55,683 bases of DNA from a virus. Lineage: Duplodnaviria; Caudoviricetes. The stretch is from the IMG/VR virus record IMGVR_UViG_3300023174_000203, positions 1-55,683 of that record; one strand, 5' to 3'. Shown one piece after another: positions 8,794 to 40,180 of this stretch. The translations under genes and the position numbers were made by a program. How positions within the stretch are numbered: the first letter of the stretch is position 1; every line of letters starts with the position of its first letter. The notes below the pieces were generated by a model. That model had not been told where the DNA came from and ran no database searches. It saw nothing but the letters and a program-made list of their open reading frames with translations.

Positions 8794-11640
8794 TTAGTCA
8801 TTATCAATAATCTTCAATTTTCGCTGTGCTTTAATATTACGCGAGATCAAATAATTAGATAGGTTATCAACATCCTTATCATTACCTGGACCTGGTTCTT
8901 GATTCAGGTTTTTAGGTAATGTTTGGAAACGTGGGTCATCAGCAAGATGCGCTGATGGTGGACGTTCAGTATTTCCACTTTGAGCATCTACGATCTTTCT
9001 GTATATATCAACAACATAACCATGCTCTGAATTGAGGTTCATATCACCAGCAAACTTCATTACTTTCATTGCTGCTAGTTTTGCTGCTGCAACATCTTCT
9101 GGAGTTGCAAACTTAGATACTTGAACTTTCTTCCAGATTCCAAATAGGTTATCTTGTTCTTGTGCAGCCATCGATGCCATGTTTGGATCAGTTCCTTTTG
9201 GAAGATTCATGTAAAGCTTTTGTGCTTCAGGACTTGTTTCAAAATGCTTTGAACGATATGAACCAACAAAGATCTGATCTTCAGGATCATTCTCCATTTG
9301 CTTACTCGAGCGAACTGTAGTGCTTGTCATTTTAGGTGCAGCTTTCATCTCTTTAAATGACATAATCTTTCTAACTTCAGGATGATGTTCAAATCCACCT
9401 AAACTCTCATTTGTTGTTTTTGCTCTAGCGTTTTGAAGCTGTCTTTTAAACCCTTGTGCTGTAGTACTGTCACCACGCTGAAGAGCACCTGCTATCTTTT
9501 TATGTATCGCAGCAGCAACGTGTTTACCCGCTTTAGCCATGGCTGCAGCAGCTCTTAGATGTGAAGCTGCATCTTCATTGATCTCTACTTCTTCTTTTCT
9601 AAGTGCATCGATCTCTTTCTGCTTTTGAGCAATTCTCTTCTTATACTCTTCAGGATCAGGTAGACCAGATTTCTTACGAAGTTCTTGATGACGACGATAC
9701 GCTTTTTCTGCAGCAGTTTCTTTAGGCATCTTAAAAGCTTCTTGAGCGCTCTTTAATGCATCTTTAGTTGGTGCACCTTTTGAACCTGGCTTACGCATAC
9801 GCTCACCTGAACCATTCTTAATACGTTCACGCTTGGCATGAATATTGGCCCAAAGACCAGCTTCATTAAGACCTTCTTTTTTCACCTTTGCCCATAGATC
9901 TGCATCAGCAGTTGTTCTTGTCTTACCACCAGATAAGAATGAATTTACTCGTGCAAATGCCCATTGTTGTGGTGTTGTTCCAGGACGGTGACTCGATTTA
10001 TATGCACCCATTCCACGCTTAAATACTTGCTTTAGAATACCAAGAGACACACCTGATTTTTCTGCTTTTTTCTTTAGACCATCAACAGCTTCTTCACTGA
10101 TCTCGGTCATCTCGATACGATCCATTACATTTTCAATGATCGTCAATAACTCATCGGTGTCATCTTTCTCTTCACCGATCATCTTCTTGAAGTTAGTATA
10201 GTTAGCACTTGCATTTTTAATGAATGCTAGTTTATCAGCGGGCTTCTTAAGCCCGAAATAATGATCGAGCGCTTTACGAGCTTGATCTGGTTTAATCATT
10301 ACTGCAGGACCTTGATCAAACGTAACATCCTTTTTACCATGCATTGAGATGGATTTTTGAAGTTGAATAATCAGATTCTGATCTGCTTCACGACCATTAT
10401 CTGGACCGTAATCCTCTTCACCATCTTCTTTAGCTTTTACTTTTGCTGCAGCTGCACGTTTAGCAAGCGTCTCAGGTTTAGCTGGACGACCGCGGCGTTT
10501 TACTTGCTGTGACATCTCTTTAAATGAAACCATTTCCATAATATCGTTTTCCTCTTTCACAGGCTTAATAGGTTGTGCTTTCATAGCTTGACCTAAATTA
10601 AATGATCTCAGTCTTTGAACTTCTTTCTTACGAACAGTAGGTAATAAACGTGATGCGATTCGCTTAATCAATGCTCCCTTTTTATCAATAGTCCTATCAA
10701 CTGCAATTTTATCTGATGGCGATAACTCATGATACTTAACACCTCTTTGACCTGCAAATCTCTTACGAGCAACATCTCTTGCCATTCTTTGCGCTCTAGC
10801 TTTTAACTTAGGAGTACCTGCTAATCTACGTTGTGCAAGTTGTTTGGCACGTAAAATCTTTGTCTTATACTTGCGCATAAGGATCTTACGCTTAATTCTT
10901 TGCTGAAGATTTAATACTGCTTCATTCAACAGACCTTCAGCTTCTAATTCGTTTTCCATCTCTTCACGAATATGCATCTCAACTTTTAATACGTTGAATA
11001 TCTCTGTAGCTACTGATTTAAGCTTAGATGGAAGACCTGACTTAAATGCCTTAATATCGTTCTCTCGTACTGCTTGTCTCATCTTAGACGCTGACATACC
11101 TGCTACTCCTTCTGCATCGGGATCACGCTCACCAGCGGATTCAACAACGATGCTATCAAAATTATATTCTTTTCCGTTATACTTGTTTAATAGTGAACTA
11201 AATTCATTCACACGATCTGAACCTACTACAACTGTAATATTTTTATATGTGTTCTCTAATTCTTTTAATACCTCAATAATAGTCTTTGCCTTTGAAACAT
11301 GCATAAGATCGCCAAATGCTTCGCGAGCATATTTCATCTTGTCTTTGTATGACAATGGATTCTTTTTACTATCTTGGGAGTGTGAGAGATATACTAGTGG
11401 TTTTGCTCTTTTACTTGCTGCAATCTTTTTGACTGCTTCCACTAGCTTTTGATGTCCTACAGTAGGAGGATTAAACCTACCGAAAGTTAGCACCACGGCG
11501 TTACCTGCTTGTTCGGCCACCTCGGATGGCACCTTTGGGTTTATTTCTATCTTATCAAGTTGCTTCTTACTAGTCGAAAAACCAGCTGAGGAGGCTTTTG
11601 GGGGAGTCTTTGACTTGTTTATTTCAATCTTCTTTTCCAT
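8794..11640 (-). CDS. 948 aa multidomain protein: HxGH-class nucleotidyl(cytidylyl)transferase plus C-terminal basic modules
   Basis: TFGRFNPPTVGH, VVGSDRV, SAGERDPD, MSASKMR; later GMGAYKSSHRPGTTPQQWAFARVNSF and GLWANIHAKR modules. Confidence 0.8.
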   Translation of the reverse strand: MEKKIEINKSKTPPKASSAGFSTSKKQLDKIEINPKVPSEVAEQAGNAVVLTFGRFNPPTVGHQKLVEAVKKIAASKRAKPLVYLSHSQDSKKNPLSYKDKMKYAREAFGDLMHVSKAKTIIEVLKELENTYKNITVVVGSDRVNEFSSLLNKYNGKEYNFDSIVVESAGERDPDAEGVAGMSASKMRQAVRENDIKAFKSGLPSKLKSVATEIFNVLKVEMHIREEMENELEAEGLLNEAVLNLQQRIKRKILMRKYKTKILRAKQLAQRRLAGTPKLKARAQRMARDVARKRFAGQRGVKYHELSPSDKIAVDRTIDKKGALIKRIASRLLPTVRKKEVQRLRSFNLGQAMKAQPIKPVKEENDIMEMVSFKEMSQQVKRRGRPAKPETLAKRAAAAKVKAKEDGEEDYGPDNGREADQNLIIQLQKSISMHGKKDVTFDQGPAVMIKPDQARKALDHYFGLKKPADKLAFIKNASANYTNFKKMIGEEKDDTDELLTIIENVMDRIEMTEISEEAVDGLKKKAEKSGVSLGILKQVFKRGMGAYKSSHRPGTTPQQWAFARVNSFLSGGKTRTTADADLWAKVKKEGLNEAGLWANIHAKRERIKNGSGERMRKPGSKGAPTKDALKSAQEAFKMPKETAAEKAYRRHQELRKKSGLPDPEEYKKRIAQKQKEIDALRKEEVEINEDAASHLRAAAAMAKAGKHVAAAIHKKIAGALQRGDSTTAQGFKRQLQNARAKTTNESLGGFEHHPEVRKIMSFKEMKAAPKMTSTTVRSSKQMENDPEDQIFVGSYRSKHFETSPEAQKLYMNLPKGTDPNMASMAAQEQDNLFGIWKKVQVSKFATPEDVAAAKLAAMKVMKFAGDMNLNSEHGYVVDIYRKIVDAQSGNTERPPSAHLADDPRFQTLPKNLNQEPGPGNDKDVDNLSNYLISRNIKAQRKLKIIDND

Positions 11641-11713: not shown

Positions 11714-12948
11714 CTATCTCTGCCAACCTTTAATTATATCAGGTGAAAAGTTGGCACGACTGAATTCTAAACGATCTACGATCTTAACTGCACCACCTGT
11801 TAGATGATCAATAGCAACAAAACCTTCGACTCCAGTAGTCTTGAATCCTGATGCAGTTTTTAAGAACGTCTTAATATGTCCTGCTGAGTTCATCTTATTG
11901 ATAATCATATTTTTTGCATCGATGATCAGATTTGCTAGATCGAATATTTGAGCAATGTCGGTCTTATCATGGTCAATAAAGAACTTTAATACTTTCTTTC
12001 TAGCTGCTTCTTGTGTTGCTTTTCCAGCCTCTGTCTTCTTCTTATCCATCTCTTTTTGATAGCGATCATGGATAAAATTATAGAGATCATTTACATGCTT
12101 ATTTGTGTTAGTGATCTTCTCTGAATTCCTGATCTTAGAGTTATTAAACATCTTTACCATGTTTAACAGATCGTTATCCTGATGGATTGCGTTAATTGTA
12201 CCTGATGTAGTTGCATTAAACAACTTACCGATCTTTGATAAGATTGCAGTTAATTCGGCAGTCTCTGTTGCAGTAAATGTTGCAGTGCCAGAATAATCTT
12301 TATAGTTAGCATCATCCATCCATACAGACTTCACATGCTTTAAGTTTGCAATAATACTTTTACCAAATGATGCTTTCATTGTCTCGAGAGTATCACCTTC
12401 ATACGTAGTATGCCATACGACACCCACATTTGCAGCATTAATCATTTTAGCAAGTGCACTATTAGCTGGAACGGCATAGACGATCGTATTAGGATGAAAA
12501 GTAATATAGTCTTCTTCACCTATAGTAGCAGTCTTAACATCACCTTTAGTGAACATCATATCGCCTTGATATACTCCGCTCTTGATTCCAAGTTTAGAGA
12601 ATTCTTTTAACGCGACTTTAAACTTTGTATTCAGATCTCCACTTAGATTGGCATCGATGTCTTTATCGGTCTTATAGACTTCAGGATTCTTATTGAAGAT
12701 TCCTTTTTTTGCAACGAAGAACTTACCATCTGCAGGATCGACACCAGCAAATATAGCAGGAGCACCATCCCATTTTACAGTAGCAGCAACTTTAGTCTTT
12801 GTTTGACCAGCAAGCATGTCACGAAGATCACGTAGGAAGTTAATCGCTTTACGAGTTCCATCAACACCCTCATTGAAGATGAGATCTTCTAAAGATGCTC
12901 CATATGAACGTTCTTTTGTTCAACAATATGATCTTTAAACTTTAGCAT
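11714..12948 (-). CDS. Ligase-like KxDG nucleotidyltransferase (DUF6267-like), interrupted by a 2-nt frameshift at 12890-12891
   Basis: GGAGG SD and ATG 12948 give MLKFKDHIVEQKNVHMEHL-stop; removing 2 nt continues EDLIFNEGVDG... into the 367 aa ORF with VKWDGAP, QGDMMF, EGFV, KIVDR (410 aa in total). Confidence 0.8.
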
Positions 12949-13589
12949 ACAGAGCCCTCCTTTCTTTCTTTTCTAGGTTTCATTTTCCCGCGTCCTTTTA
13001 CATATCCTTCTGGTTGAGTTCCTTCAGTAACATATATTGAAGTTTCACCATTATTATACCACTTTAGATTCTTTTCCTTAACTGCGCTTCTTCCATACAT
13101 TGGGTTATTATTTCCAGACACATCATGACCATGCATGTTTTTTACTCTATCTCTTCTTTGTTCTTCTGTTAAACTGTCCCAATGTTTCTTAACTTGTTTA
13201 GAAGTTGACTTCCCATACATTGGATTATTTTTTCCAGTCTTATCTACAGTTTTCATATATGAATTTCTAGATTTTCTTTCGTCCTCAGTTAAAAATGACC
13301 AATACTTTTTAACAGTTTCCGGGTTGCCTCCATAACCGCCTTCAGACAAATTATAAAATTCTTCTGAATTTACTGCATCATATAATTCTATCCATTTTCT
13401 TTCGGCTCTAGATACTTCTTCTATACTTAAACATTCTTCTAAAATAATCTTTTCAAAATTTTGTTTTCCATATTTTTTAATTGCTGCTAGTATTAATGGT
13501 CCTGATCCAAGATAAGAATCATCATTTCGTGTTGAATACCCAATATACTTTTTACCGTTTATTTTATTTGTCGTCAAATATACATGCAT
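12942..13589 (-). mobile_element. Free-standing GIY-YIG homing endonuclease (Seg-like) with NUMOD3 repeats
   Basis: HVY...KKYIG, YLGSG, E..WI, FYN motifs; two G.NNPMYG repeats; own late promoter and AGGAGG SD. Confidence 0.9.
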
Positions 13590-13607
13590 AGTTTCCTCCT
13601 ATACAAG

Positions 13608-13635
13608 TATTTATAATTATGAACATCTTGAAGAT
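13608..13635 (-). promoter_or_regulatory. Late promoter TATAAATA (13608-13615) with adjacent putative operator mimicking the target site (13618-13635)
   Basis: Plus-strand GAACATCTTGAAGAT matches the uninterrupted version of GAGCATCTT(TA)GAAGAT in the neighbouring gene. Confidence 0.65.
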
Positions 13636-14240
13636 TATTTTATTGTCTTTATACTTCCATCAGGTTTTGCAAAGTAAGCTTCAAACTTAATCTTTGGGAA
13701 TGAATTCTTTAACTTTAAGAACTCTTTTAGATTACTCATCGCATCATCGAACAATCTTACTTTACTAAATTGACCTGTACTTAAATAATTATGAATGATG
13801 ATAGCTTTTTTGTGTGCAGGCATCATATCACCACTAATATTACCTGCACGTTCTACTCGAACTTTACCGATATCAAATTTGTGTTTACTAAATGTTTCTA
13901 AGAATCGATCTTTGTTATCGAAGTTTGCTCGTGCAGTAACTATCACTACACGACTCTTTGCATTTCTTGTTGATCGATCTAAGATGATCTTTGCTTTAGT
14001 CAACATCCTATTAATTGGCTCAGATTCTTTGTAGAACTTTTCTGCATCTCTAAATTCTGAGAAGTCGAATGACTCTCCATTTTCAAGTTTATATACATTG
14101 AACTCATTGTTCGTTAAACTCTTGATCTTCTTACCATCTTTAACAACTGCGATCTTTGCAGTCGTGTGGAACAACGTATCATCAATATCGAATATTGATA
14201 ATGTACCTAATTTACTGTTGTATTCTTTGAAACTTAACAT
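13635..14240 (-). CDS. HAD-family phosphatase (PseT/polynucleotide 3'-phosphatase-like)
   Basis: IFDIDDT motif I, VTAR motif II, K, FDD motif IV. Confidence 0.8.
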   Translation of the reverse strand: MLSFKEYNSKLGTLSIFDIDDTLFHTTAKIAVVKDGKKIKSLTNNEFNVYKLENGESFDFSEFRDAEKFYKESEPINRMLTKAKIILDRSTRNAKSRVVIVTARANFDNKDRFLETFSKHKFDIGKVRVERAGNISGDMMPAHKKAIIIHNYLSTGQFSKVRLFDDAMSNLKEFLKLKNSFPKIKFEAYFAKPDGSIKTIK

Positions 14241-14265
14241 ATTTCCTTTTTTATTCTATAAGGAT

Positions 14266-14329
14266 ATTATACCATATTTCTAGTCATTTGTACACTGTTT
14301 ATTTTTGACAATGTGTACGGAATGATACA
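14266..14329 (-). promoter_or_regulatory. Promoter TGTACA-N17-TATAAT with upstream imperfect palindrome
   Basis: TATAAT 14271-14266, TGTACA 14294-14289, TGTACGGAATGATACA 14314-14329; same architecture at 37639-37701. Confidence 0.75.
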
Positions 14330-15113: not shown

Positions 15114-15137
15114 AAAAAAGGGAGCCGAAGCTCCCTT
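15114..15137 (-). terminator. Rho-independent terminator
   Basis: AAGGGAGC-TTCG-GCTCCCTT followed by T run. Confidence 0.9.
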
Positions 15138-25155: not shown

Positions 25156-25231
25156 TGGAGCGGATGATCAGGTTCGAACTGACGACATTCTGCTTGGAAG
25201 GCAGACGCTCTACCAACTGAGCTACATCCGC
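25156..25231 (-). tRNA. tRNA-Gly (TCC)
   Basis: 76 nt cloverleaf GCGGATG...CATCCGC-T-CCA; anticodon arm TCTGC-CTTCCAA-GCAGA. Confidence 0.97.
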
Positions 25232-25703: not shown

Positions 25704-25719
25704 GATAAAGCTTTATGGG

Positions 25720-25790
25720 CTACGATGCACGGACTCGAACCGCGACAGGCAGTTTTGGAGACTGCAGTGCTACCATTACACCACACCGTA
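25720..25790 (-). tRNA. tRNA-Trp (CCA)
   Basis: Acceptor TACGGTG/CATCGTA, anticodon arm GCAGT-CTCCAAA-ACTGC, T loop TTCGAGT; followed by CCCA. Confidence 0.92.
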
Positions 25791-25800
25791 ATTCTCTTTT

Positions 25801-38465: not shown

Positions 38466-40180
38466 GTTGCGATCCTACTAAAATTTTTATGCTTTTCAAA
38501 TTTAATCACACTATGGAACTTGTCGTATAGCTGATCACCCTTATGGCTTATGATGAATACATTTGTATCTTGTGCAAGTCCATTTAAGATCTTAATAAAT
38601 TCATCTGTGCCACCACTATCTAAAGAACTATCAAATACTTCATCCATAATTAATAAATTAGTTGTCGATGAGTTTCTTAGTTTAGCAACAGCTCTCCATG
38701 CAAATAACAATGCAAGATCGATTCTCATCTTCTCACCTTCAGAGAAACTTGCATAACTAAATTCATCTCTAAATCGTGACTTAATTGTTTCTTCGAAGTT
38801 CTCATTCAATTCAAAGTTAACAAAGAAGTCCATTGCAGATAGATACTTATTAATCAATTGATTGATAATTGGAATATACTGACGAATGATTCGTGTTTTA
38901 ATTCCACCATCTTTCAATAAACTAGATGCTACATCTAATATCTGTTTTTCCTTTGATAGATCTTCTTTCTTTATAATAGATTGTTTAAGCTCTGTCTTGA
39001 GAGCTTGAAGATCTATATTACTGTCATCATTATTTGCAACAGTCTGTTGAAGCTTTATAATTTCTTTTCTAAGATCGTTTTCAAAGTTATTCCACATTGT
39101 TATCTTAGTATTTAGCTCAGAGATCTTTTTATTATTCTCAGTGATAGATTTATTGATAACCTGAATTGCTGCAATACGATCCATTGCTGAATTAAATTCT
39201 TGTTGAAGAAGATCAGTGCCATCTTCTATATCTTTAATCTGCTTACTGTTTTTATCTATGATCTCATGCTTATGACCATCTTGAATTCCTTGCTTACAAG
39301 TAGGGCAATCATTATTGTCTTCAAAGAATTTAACATCCTTTTTCAGCTTAACTAATTTAACTCCTACTTTACGACGAAGATCTTCAAGCTGCTCATACTT
39401 CTTTTGAATTTTTTCTTTATCAGAAATAGAAATCTCTGCAGTTGTATTTAGTATTTCGTATTTTTGAATTTCAATCGCTGCTTGATTCTTAGATTCAACA
39501 ATACCATTTAACTGAATTTCTTTCTGTTTAACTACTTCATCATTGCTAGTACGAATAGTCTCTAGATGTTTCTTATGCATCTCAATCTTATCTGAGATTG
39601 ATTTCATCTCAAAGCTAATTGATACTAGATCTTCTTTGTTTGATTGAACTTTCTCTTTAAGAATGGTATTCATCATAGAAAAGATTTGAATATCCAAAAG
39701 ATCTTCAATAACTTGACGACGAGTGCCAGCAGGTAACTGCATGAAAGGAATAAAGTTTGCAGAACCAAGAACAACGATCTGATTAAACGACTTATGATTA
39801 AGCTTTAGAATATTCTTTTCTAGATACTCTTGATAATCACGAGTAGCAGAATCTTGATTCATCAGAGTTCCATTCTGATAGATCTCAAATATTCCTGGTT
39901 TTAATCCACGTCTAATTAGATATTCACTTCTACCTACATTAAATTCAACTTCAACTAATAGATTCTTTTGTGTAATAGAGTTTACTAGTTGAGGCTTATT
40001 AATGTTTCGAAATGGTTTGCCATACAACGAAAACAACAAAGCGTCGAGGATGGTAGATTTACCTGCACCATTTTCCCCGACGATTAGAGTAGATTTATTT
40101 CTTGTTAAATCAATCTCAGTAAATAGATTTCCTGTAGAGATGAAGTTCTTCCATCTCAACTTCTTGAAGTATATTGCCAT
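38462..40180 (-). CDS. 46: Recombination endonuclease ATPase subunit (gp46)
   Basis: GENGAGKST, CPTC hook, FSEGE, IMDE. Confidence 0.97.
   Translation of the reverse strand: MAIYFKKLRWKNFISTGNLFTEIDLTRNKSTLIVGENGAGKSTILDALLFSLYGKPFRNINKPQLVNSITQKNLLVEVEFNVGRSEYLIRRGLKPGIFEIYQNGTLMNQDSATRDYQEYLEKNILKLNHKSFNQIVVLGSANFIPFMQLPAGTRRQVIEDLLDIQIFSMMNTILKEKVQSNKEDLVSISFEMKSISDKIEMHKKHLETIRTSNDEVVKQKEIQLNGIVESKNQAAIEIQKYEILNTTAEISISDKEKIQKKYEQLEDLRRKVGVKLVKLKKDVKFFEDNNDCPTCKQGIQDGHKHEIIDKNSKQIKDIEDGTDLLQQEFNSAMDRIAAIQVINKSITENNKKISELNTKITMWNNFENDLRKEIIKLQQTVANNDDSNIDLQALKTELKQSIIKKEDLSKEKQILDVASSLLKDGGIKTRIIRQYIPIINQLINKYLSAMDFFVNFELNENFEETIKSRFRDEFSYASFSEGEKMRIDLALLFAWRAVAKLRNSSTTNLLIMDEVFDSSLDSGGTDEFIKILNGLAQDTNVFIISHKGDQLYDKFHSVIKFEKHKNFSRIAT

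Follow-up and report, generated by a model that had tools for sequence, protein, structure and literature searches.

Why would a phage carry, at the promoter of a homing endonuclease gene (HEG), an intact copy of a coding motif that is interrupted in the gene next to it? The question is raised by a fragment of an uncultured T4-like myovirus (IMG/VR record IMGVR_UViG_3300023174_000203; 55,683 nucleotides, or 55.7 kb; CheckV completeness 31%), the whole of which is here called the window. In it a free-standing GIY-YIG HEG lies directly upstream of DUF6267, a conserved phage gene whose 5' part is broken by a 2-nt TA insertion inside a motif encoding E-H-L-E-D. The same motif without the TA, GAACATCTTGAAGAT, stands inverted at the left end of the HEG insertion, beside TATAAATA, the T4-type late promoter of the HEG (Table 1). 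Comparison with related loci, denoted by L numbers, suggests that the copy is an autorepression operator of the I-TevI kind, which is the best-supported explanation and one that we would give an even chance of being right. We lean slightly towards a wider view, in which the window would belong to a widespread cassette family of freshwater T4-like phages that combines an operator made from an uncleavable copy of the target, tiny protective inserts containing a stop codon, and decoding of these inserts by ribosomal hops.

The match was pointed out in an earlier sequence-only reading, and its geometry holds when the sequence is read again. The copy agrees, in inverted orientation, with 14 of the 15 nt of the interrupted motif GAGCATCTT[TA]GAAGAT once the TA is ignored, and exactly 5 nt (13616-13620) separate it from TATAAATA, whose end lies 18 nt from the ATG of the HEG. 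On the other side, the copy reaches into the upstream 201-amino-acid (201-aa) gene by its last base (13635), which is third in that gene's stop codon. The core of the motif is an 11-nt palindrome, ATCTTGAAGAT, and the inverted orientation is fixed by four extra bases, GAAC, plus TAT after a 1-nt gap. There are 10 occurrences of TATAAATA in the window, all on the coding strand and several just 5' of late or structural genes, which makes its reading as a T4-type late promoter reasonable. Only two sites on both strands of the window come within one mismatch of the spliced 15-mer, the copy itself and GAGCAGCTTGAAGAT (39380-39394, minus strand; E-Q-L-E-D; 14/15), which lies inside a gp46-like SMC_N/AAA_23 gene and is taken as chance; in 400 second-order Markov simulations the mean was 0.03 such hits per window. 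Among the 15-mers of the first ~49 codons of the target gene, only the motif has a match with at most one mismatch within 12949-14300. The p value of the window match by itself is about 0.001-0.05, varying with the null model and the post-hoc choice. Taken alone the match is only suggestive, and it is the relatives that make the case solid.

The HEG itself has the marks of a mobile insertion. In L002 (IMG/VR), both flanking proteins are 97% identical to those of the window and the HEG is missing; there the stop of the 201-aa gene and the start of DUF6267 share bases in TAATG, and the motif, ATGGAACATTTGGAAGAT, has no TA. Compared with L002, the window is longer by a 686-nt insertion that begins with the inverted copy and ends with the Shine-Dalgarno sequence and start of DUF6267. 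Divergence between the two is raised for ~540 nt into DUF6267 and not upstream (10, 6, 4, 4, 8, 6, 3, 5 and 5 mismatches per 60 nt, then 0-2), which is what co-conversion from a break inside DUF6267 would give. This pair thus shows both presence/absence polymorphism of the HEG and a co-conversion-like tract. The HEG product matches PF01541 (E 3.5e-6) and PF07460 (E 7e-7) above the Pfam cut-off, and PF19835 below it. Among 80 IMG/VR relatives of the HEG the 10 closest (43-54% identity) are all directly upstream of DUF6267, and six of the other 150 loci with HEG relatives (L092-L241, from IMG/VR and a metagenome collection), L162 included, are also upstream of it. No close relative of the cassette was found in cultured phages; in Melnitz, DUF6267 is intact and the three annotated features at the match are only genes next to it. 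In five loci that are HEG-less by the test used (L006, L038, L049, L050, L052), the 201-aa gene and DUF6267 do not overlap and are 0.5-1.1 kb apart, so that other inserted genes may occupy the same site.

The copy is conserved in related HEG loci, as the sequence-only reading had expected of a functional site. A pattern scan gave 34 lesion-bearing loci, in 14 of which the promoter region fell outside the fetched locus; in the 20 with a visible promoter region, the motif GAACAY.T.GAAGAT is present every time, in direct orientation, 8-9 nt 5' of a TATAAATA-like box. The same direct arrangement is found in L165, L322 and L327. Inversion of the motif is confined to the window and L162, an independent contig of metagenomic origin that has 90% identity to the window in the HEG protein and a copy, spacer, promoter and ribosome-binding region identical to those of the window; the inverted motif lies inside a 75-nt block of 100% identity. 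An IMG/VR search with the exact 27-nt copy plus promoter gave no match. Across eight cassette lineages the mean pairwise identity of the 18-nt copy is 0.986, compared with 0.94 for the promoter box, 0.93 for the box-to-ATG (ribosome-binding) region, 0.71 for the 5-nt spacer, 0.65-0.68 for HEG third codon positions and 0.42 for the 20 nt to the left of the copy. The copy is therefore more conserved than even the promoter box, and several cassette pairs have copies identical at 18/18 positions with HEG proteins 63-70% identical (63% in L341/L165).

The left flanks of the copy are as variable as the copy is constant. L086-type cassettes still show what remains of codons 1-17 of the gene, shortened by a 7-nt deletion, and the copy is the 3' end of this remnant; the L082, L165 and L322 types have lost all of it except the motif. 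A 7-nt deletion, a fusion to the start codon and a fusion to a stop are all seen, and the boundary always falls directly 5' of GAACAY. Such constancy between changeable flanks speaks for a functional cis-element maintained by selection, and against a neutral relic. Covariation of operator and target among relatives was not found, however: the copy is constant and the resident motif varies at wobble positions.

How such an element might act is suggested by I-TevI, encoded in the td intron of T4. Its autorepression operator (Edgell et al. 2004, as summarised in a review, PMC2988022) is 15/20 identical to the homing site and lies at the late promoter, a precedent that the sequence-only reading had given correctly. 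According to that summary, I-TevI binds the operator as well as the homing site and cuts it ~100-fold less because it lacks a CXXXG at the right distance, cleavage being at CN^NN^G. The window resembles this system in having a T4 late promoter that drives a GIY-YIG gene, a sequence at this promoter that resembles the homing site (15/20 in I-TevI, 14/15 here) and a hairpin over the start codon and ribosome-binding site that late transcripts escape (PMC2988022). As the 5' arm of the predicted hairpin in the window starts in the promoter box, late transcripts should be without it. An equivalent was predicted in the six L086-like cassettes of the nine folded, and the same review describes start-codon hairpins as typical of T4 endonuclease genes. 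The systems differ in that the window HEG is free-standing (Seg-like) and I-TevI is intron-encoded, and in that the copy abuts its promoter box without overlapping it, occurs in either orientation and is known from sequence alone.

The preferred reading takes the cassette as a mobile GIY-YIG HEG placed directly upstream of its target, the 5' end of DUF6267, with the 15-mer as its conserved left-end element. This element is an uninterrupted copy of the H-[ML]-E-H-[LIV]-E-D coding motif, and its distance from the late promoter is fixed in each cassette examined. By analogy with I-TevI, the endonuclease may bind the copy without cutting it, occluding or hindering use of the late promoter and so repressing its own gene. 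The TA in the resident gene would confer immunity to cutting, and a +2 ribosomal shift or hop at CUU-UAG would allow the full-length DUF6267 protein still to be made. The inverted orientation in the window would be a derived variant, the element being direct in all other cassette types. In HEG-less genes, a C-NNN-G often ends exactly at the two lesion positions, and in each of the copies examined the position that corresponds to its lesion type has T or A and not that C; CNNNG is the preference of I-TevI.

Several observations sit less easily with an operator. Endonuclease binding to the copy and repression by it are predictions made on a sequence basis, and the copy adjoins the promoter box without overlapping it. 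Two types of C-terminal (DNA-binding) region, one in the window and one in L322 and L086, go with one motif, which is awkward if the C-terminal domain reads the motif. The flipped orientation belongs to the window type only and to two sequences (the window and L162), and a direct-type element could derive from a plain remnant of the disrupted gene 5' end. In T4, deletion of the I-TevI operator is described as having no noticeable effect on viability (PMC2988022), so any function of the copy may be subtle. The strain differences listed for X2, a contig from another study that represents a 5%-diverged strain, reach 13145, short of the copy. Moreover, neither the motif nor TATAAATA was seen upstream of the HEG in L163, a GC-richer locus (HEG 657-1184, DUF6267 from ~1180) with a window-type C-terminus and an unbroken gene; its motif reads M-R-H-V-E-D (E to R), and immunity there may come from substitution in place of insertion. 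What stands of the operator proposal is thus an uninterrupted target copy at the HEG late promoter, in an arrangement conserved under purifying selection; what does not is covariation with the resident target.

Other explanations of the copy would account for parts of these data. It is improbable, if not negligibly so, that the copy is a functionless relic, left over from the recipient gene 5' end (or a captured fragment of the target) and passively inherited at the left junction. The gene remnant that ends in the L086-type copy looks like such a leftover, and the positions of the copy that vary between cassette types are codon wobble positions, as for gene pieces. However, the 18-mer is 98.6% identical where HEG third positions reach ~66% and the left flank 42%, and it was kept when the rest of the remnant was deleted (L082, L165, L322) and again after inversion in the window type. 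Somewhat less probable than a relic is a cis-site with a different role, whether as the site of another protein, as a roadblock to read-through transcription or as an aid to homing on the donor side. Selection shows a function without saying which, and one motif goes with two different HEG C-terminal domains; yet no other candidate binder was found, 18-21 nt is short for homologous recombination, and the window copy is inverted. Control at the RNA level, with the copy as the outer 5' arm of the HEG start-codon hairpin on read-through transcripts, is unlikely. Start-codon hairpins are the rule in T4 (PMC2988022), and in some direct-type cassettes (L345, L340, L165) GAUGAA(U) at the 3' end of the copy can pair with UUCAU(C/A) in HEG codons 4-6 and so lengthen that hairpin. 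This pairing would explain at most 6-8 of the 18 conserved nt and is not predicted in L329, L322 or the window, and the conserved start-codon hairpin itself lies 3' of the copy, from the promoter box onward.

The sequence-only reading had also offered a duplex on a read-through mRNA, in which the inverted copy would pair with the interrupted site, bulge out exactly the UA and guide recoding. The duplex is thermodynamically possible, with 15 bp and a UA bulge at -17.2 kcal/mol, a value reached by none of 500 shuffles of the copy. In L162 a GAA to GAG change still pairs, as G-U. There is also a plausible read-through promoter (14266-14294) with no terminator between, and its transcripts would carry the copy as well as the lesion. 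Nevertheless, the TA lesion and the 18 nt around it are the same in L322 and L327, whose copy, being in direct orientation, cannot pair with it, and in L328 the lesion persists after loss of the HEG with no copy seen. The duplex is therefore not needed for decoding the lesion; late transcripts, moreover, begin downstream of the copy, and the two sites are ~720 nt apart. We regard this alternative as very unlikely. The least probable account is that an AT-rich, partly palindromic 15-mer has matched by chance. The unrelated 14/15 match at 39380-39394 and the 11 of 15 palindromic nt make chance matches easier to come by, but the Markov expectation is 0.03 per window, the copy lies exactly at the cassette end and promoter, and a homologous motif occurs in all related cassettes whose promoter region was seen.

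Preferring the operator for the copy leaves the lesion in DUF6267 to be explained. A sequencing or assembly error was ruled out as the source of the TA, given the contigs of runs X1 and X2 and loci L162, L322, L327 and L328. The TA is old as well as genuine and was seen in six assemblies, with HEG divergence of up to ~35%. A Logan contig of run X1, which is a second assembly of what is probably the source run, shows 0 differences from the window; the X2 contig has 62 substitutions and 0 gaps over 12600-13800, with none between 12833 and 12913, and runs X3 and X4 cover only parts of the stretch outside lesion and copy. The four loci L162, L322, L327 and L328 also read CAT ATG GAG CAT CTT [TA] G, and the 18 nt plus TA are invariant though codons 1-19 differ at as many as 11 places. 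Over the 24 codons that follow the TA, changes in the main frame are synonymous to non-synonymous at 11:1, 14:2 and 16:2, and those in the other frames are almost all non-synonymous. Residues invariant in the family stand on both sides of the lesion (E10, K12, N13, H15 and H18 before it, E20 after). Judged by these patterns, both DUF6267 frames are under coding constraint.

For the window and L082 types, a separate start of translation within the main frame was rejected, as they have no ATG, GTG or TTG there; TTG occurs in the main frame only in the L086 and L165 types. Given coding constraint on both sides and no start in the main frame, a full-length protein would require a +2 shift, and recoding at the TA lesion is strongly indicated. 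The simplest route would be for peptidyl-tRNA-Leu, while UAG occupies the A site, to leave CUU and re-pair with the overlapping UUA; this would restore ...MEHLEDL... exactly. Neither the window nor any of five records with the cassette, all of them fragments (9-41% complete), yielded an additional, intact DUF6267 gene, and no tRNA-Leu or tRNA-Glu that might bear on recoding was found within the window. The window does have genes for tRNA-Gly(tcc) and tRNA-Trp(cca), at 25156-25231 and 25716-25791 on the minus strand. A hairpin, GAAGAU-CUC-AUCUUC, lies directly 3' of the UA and is absent in L322 and L327; it may act as a recoding stimulator, but HEG-less genes encode it too. In L328 (1250-1372) the TA is kept and the HEG is reduced to a 13-codon open reading frame with the same tail (..ERKECSVC) and the same Shine-Dalgarno/start junction, and this locus is a 'hit and run' allele.

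The TA is one of a larger set of related lesions. The motif is uninterrupted in 76 of the 80 relatives of the window clade; three of the others were left uncounted, namely L040 (internal deletion) and L047 and L076 (alignments that start at residue 12). In the other DUF6267 clade (L086), 65 of the 72 evaluated are HEG-less and encode an uninterrupted N-L-H-L-E-H-L-E-D-E, and the remaining 7 have the cassette and read CTT GAG TAA T GAA CAC. Thus no insert was seen in the HEG-less uninterrupted alleles of either clade (0/76 and 0/65), and all cassette alleles examined have one except L163. Lesion-only alleles also exist, namely L328, in which an HEG tail is left, and L070, L323, L325 and L326. 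In these last four (L323 being the same contig as L070), CTT TGA CTT stands in frame and there is no HEG.

Together at least eight insert variants are found at two positions of the motif, with gaps of 2-7 nt; they include TA, TGACTT, and a Glu codon followed by TAAT, TAGCT, TAACTCC, TAATTAT or TAATATT. The seven other than TA measure 4-7 nt and contain a stop. Written as take-off, gap and landing, the 34 contigs of the pattern scan comprise GAG[TAAT]GAA (19 contigs), GAA[TAGCT]GAG and GAG[TAACTCC]GAA (4 each), GAA[TAGCT]GGG (3), GAG[TAATTAT]GAA (2), and GAG[TAAT]GAG and GAG[TAATATT]GAA (1 each). The scan required a stop and not a second Glu codon; 31 of the 34 nevertheless have matched Glu codons, GAR-TAR-(1-4 nt)-GAR, and 3 land on GGG. 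The three lesion types first found through the HEG also have a stop, and in the window type CUU-UAG contains the overlapping UUA. For all variants except GGG, a hop over the stop between matched codons restores the wild-type protein with its invariant H-x-E-H spacing; a plain frameshift or readthrough would leave the protein with additional residues. Since the main frame of the L082 type is open for only two codons ahead of the landing codon, the event there must take place while the Glu codon occupies the P site and the stop the A site. That the inserts give immunity is suggested by their strict association with the cassette and by their position, which in many HEG-less alleles corresponds to the 3' end of a C-NNN-G. 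Overall, they look like HEG-immunity insertions decoded by short ribosomal hops.

Three loci stand apart from this series. In L325 (~1660-2745, gene orientation), the CTT-TGA-CTT gene has an extra ~1.1-kb insert at residue ~62, by the KWDG motif, which could be an intron, an intein or another endonuclease gene. In L324 (1501-1527), an in-frame TAA replaces the E20 codon (MEHL*DMIF...) without matched codons and could reflect a nonsense mutation, readthrough or another genetic code. L040 (2864-3960) lacks DUF6267 residues ~47-89 with a change of frame, and is probably a broken gene or an assembly problem.

The nearest parallel for these lesions is MobA and gene 60 of T4, where a 50-nt insert accompanies an HEG, protecting against self-cleavage, and ribosomes pass over it (Bonocora et al. 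2011, as outlined in bioRxiv 10.1101/2022.08.31.505936 and PMC5009743). The two systems share an HEG beside its target, an insert only in alleles that carry or formerly carried the HEG, a take-off codon followed at once by a stop and matched by the landing codon, and 'hit and run' alleles that keep only the lesion. The inserts described here differ in being 2-7 nt instead of 50 nt and in comprising at least eight variants at two positions of one motif; the enzyme is GIY-YIG where MobA is of HNH type, and the target gene is another. A long gap like that of gene 60, a take-off stem-loop, a nascent-peptide signal and an internal Shine-Dalgarno sequence were not found at the lesions. Closer in size are the synthetic 'stop-hops' of E. 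coli, in which matched codons surround a stop and 9 nt are read as one amino acid, inefficiently (Weiss et al. 1987, as cited in PMC5009743); that 2016 review knew of no natural in-frame stop-hop. The in-frame CUU-UGA-CUU of L070, L323, L325 and L326 and the Glu-type GAR-stop-(1-4 nt)-GAR have this layout. Unlike the synthetic constructs, they are natural, conserved and within an otherwise intact conserved gene.

The window HEG also resembles the T4 Seg enzymes in its Pfam GIY-YIG, SegE_GIY-YIG and NUMOD3 matches, in its intergenic insertion and in the co-conversion of flanking markers, although it is only ~32% identical to T4-group relatives. We know of no operator-like target copy or target-gene frame lesion described for Seg enzymes. 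The shifty stop of prfB has the layout GGAG, 3 nt, CUU, stop, and the window lesion site has a similar look. A +1 frameshift of the prfB type was rejected, because the +1 frame closes after 1-6 codons in the window, L162, L322 and L327 and after ~20 in L328, and the productive frame is +2. No report of this cassette and lesion system was found among the literature matches listed, and 'DUF6267' occurred in no paper.

The setting of the cassette fits a T4-like phage. The window encodes gp23, gp20, gp18, gp17, gp43, gp41, UvsX/W/Y, gp45/44/62 and RegA, and every gene around 13621-13635 is on the minus strand. The contigs derive from lake and freshwater metagenomes, and the hosts may be freshwater. 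The sigma-70-like promoter ahead of the 201-aa gene and the terminator upstream of it would define an early unit reading through the HEG into DUF6267. DUF6267 is present in 412 phage records, from T4-like cyanophages, pelagiphages and relatives. Its AlphaFold model (pLDDT, the predicted local distance difference test score, 85) gives weak Foldseek matches (E 0.04), all to ATP-dependent DNA/RNA ligases, and K58-W59-D60-G61 is invariant; PDB sequence searches with the HEG and with DUF6267 gave nothing useful. Directly 3' of DUF6267, at 8794-11640 on the minus strand, lies a gene for a 948-aa protein with an N-terminal cytidylyltransferase-like domain and DUF5824; in cyanophages a 'cytidyltransferase' is likewise annotated beside DUF6267.

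Table 1. Positions in the window of the endonuclease cassette, its target and nearby signals.
Feature	Position	Strand	Remarks
Copy of the DUF6267 'E-H-L-E-D' motif, GAACATCTTGAAGAT	13621..13635	+	orientation opposite to the genes; left end of the HEG insertion (686 nt); candidate operator
TATAAATA, T4-type late promoter of the HEG	13608..13615	-	10/10 window matches on the coding strand; T4-like gene set
Interrupted target motif, GAGCATCTT[TA]GAAGAT	12884..12900	-	inside DUF6267
TA insertion (2 nt) breaking the DUF6267 frame	12890..12891	-	proposed immunity lesion and +2 recoding site; window, X1, X2, L162, L322, L327, L328
HEG, 215 aa, free-standing, GIY-YIG + NUMOD3	12942..13589	-	Pfam matches
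Start-codon hairpin of the HEG	13580..13610	-	RNA folding; Shine-Dalgarno 13595-13600 in loop, AUG 13587-13589 in stem
DUF6267 codons 1-19 (MLKFKDHIVEQKNVHMEHL)	12892..12948	-	ATG at 12948; then TAG at 12889-12891
Rest of DUF6267, from E20	11714..12889	-	+2 frame (GAA 12889 onward); ligase-like nucleotidyltransferase fold, invariant KWDG
Hairpin GAAGAU-CUC-AUCUUC	12875..12889	-	folding; directly 3' of the UA
201-aa gene	13635..14240	-	upstream neighbour of the HEG; Pfam: no match
Sigma-70-like promoter, TGTACA-17-TATAAT with TG	14266..14294	-	10/12, extended -10; ahead of the 201-aa gene
Intrinsic terminator	15118-15137	-	upstream of the sigma-70-like promoter

If the copy is indeed an operator, autorepression through a mimic of the target would not be peculiar to T4 intron endonucleases and would instead belong to free-standing HEG cassettes in general, as a part on which selection can act, and the copy would directly give the recognition motif of an uncharacterised enzyme family. 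The lesion family is the more important lead, however, as it appears to provide new short recoding sites tied to HEG immunity. In dozens of independent metagenomic contigs, a conserved gene that looks essential is kept in two frames with a stop between them, and the gap takes several lengths. The main accepted natural cases of bypass in the reviews cited above are the 50-nt bypass of gene 60 and the mitochondrial inserts. The lesions would offer a natural series of the short hops and +2 shifts hitherto available only in synthetic form, and they are short enough for standard E. coli reporters. If the proposed decoding is true, they would be the first natural 'stop-hops', a miniature and repeatedly evolved counterpart of T4 gene 60 bypassing, and recoding would be tied to homing-endonuclease immunity a second time.

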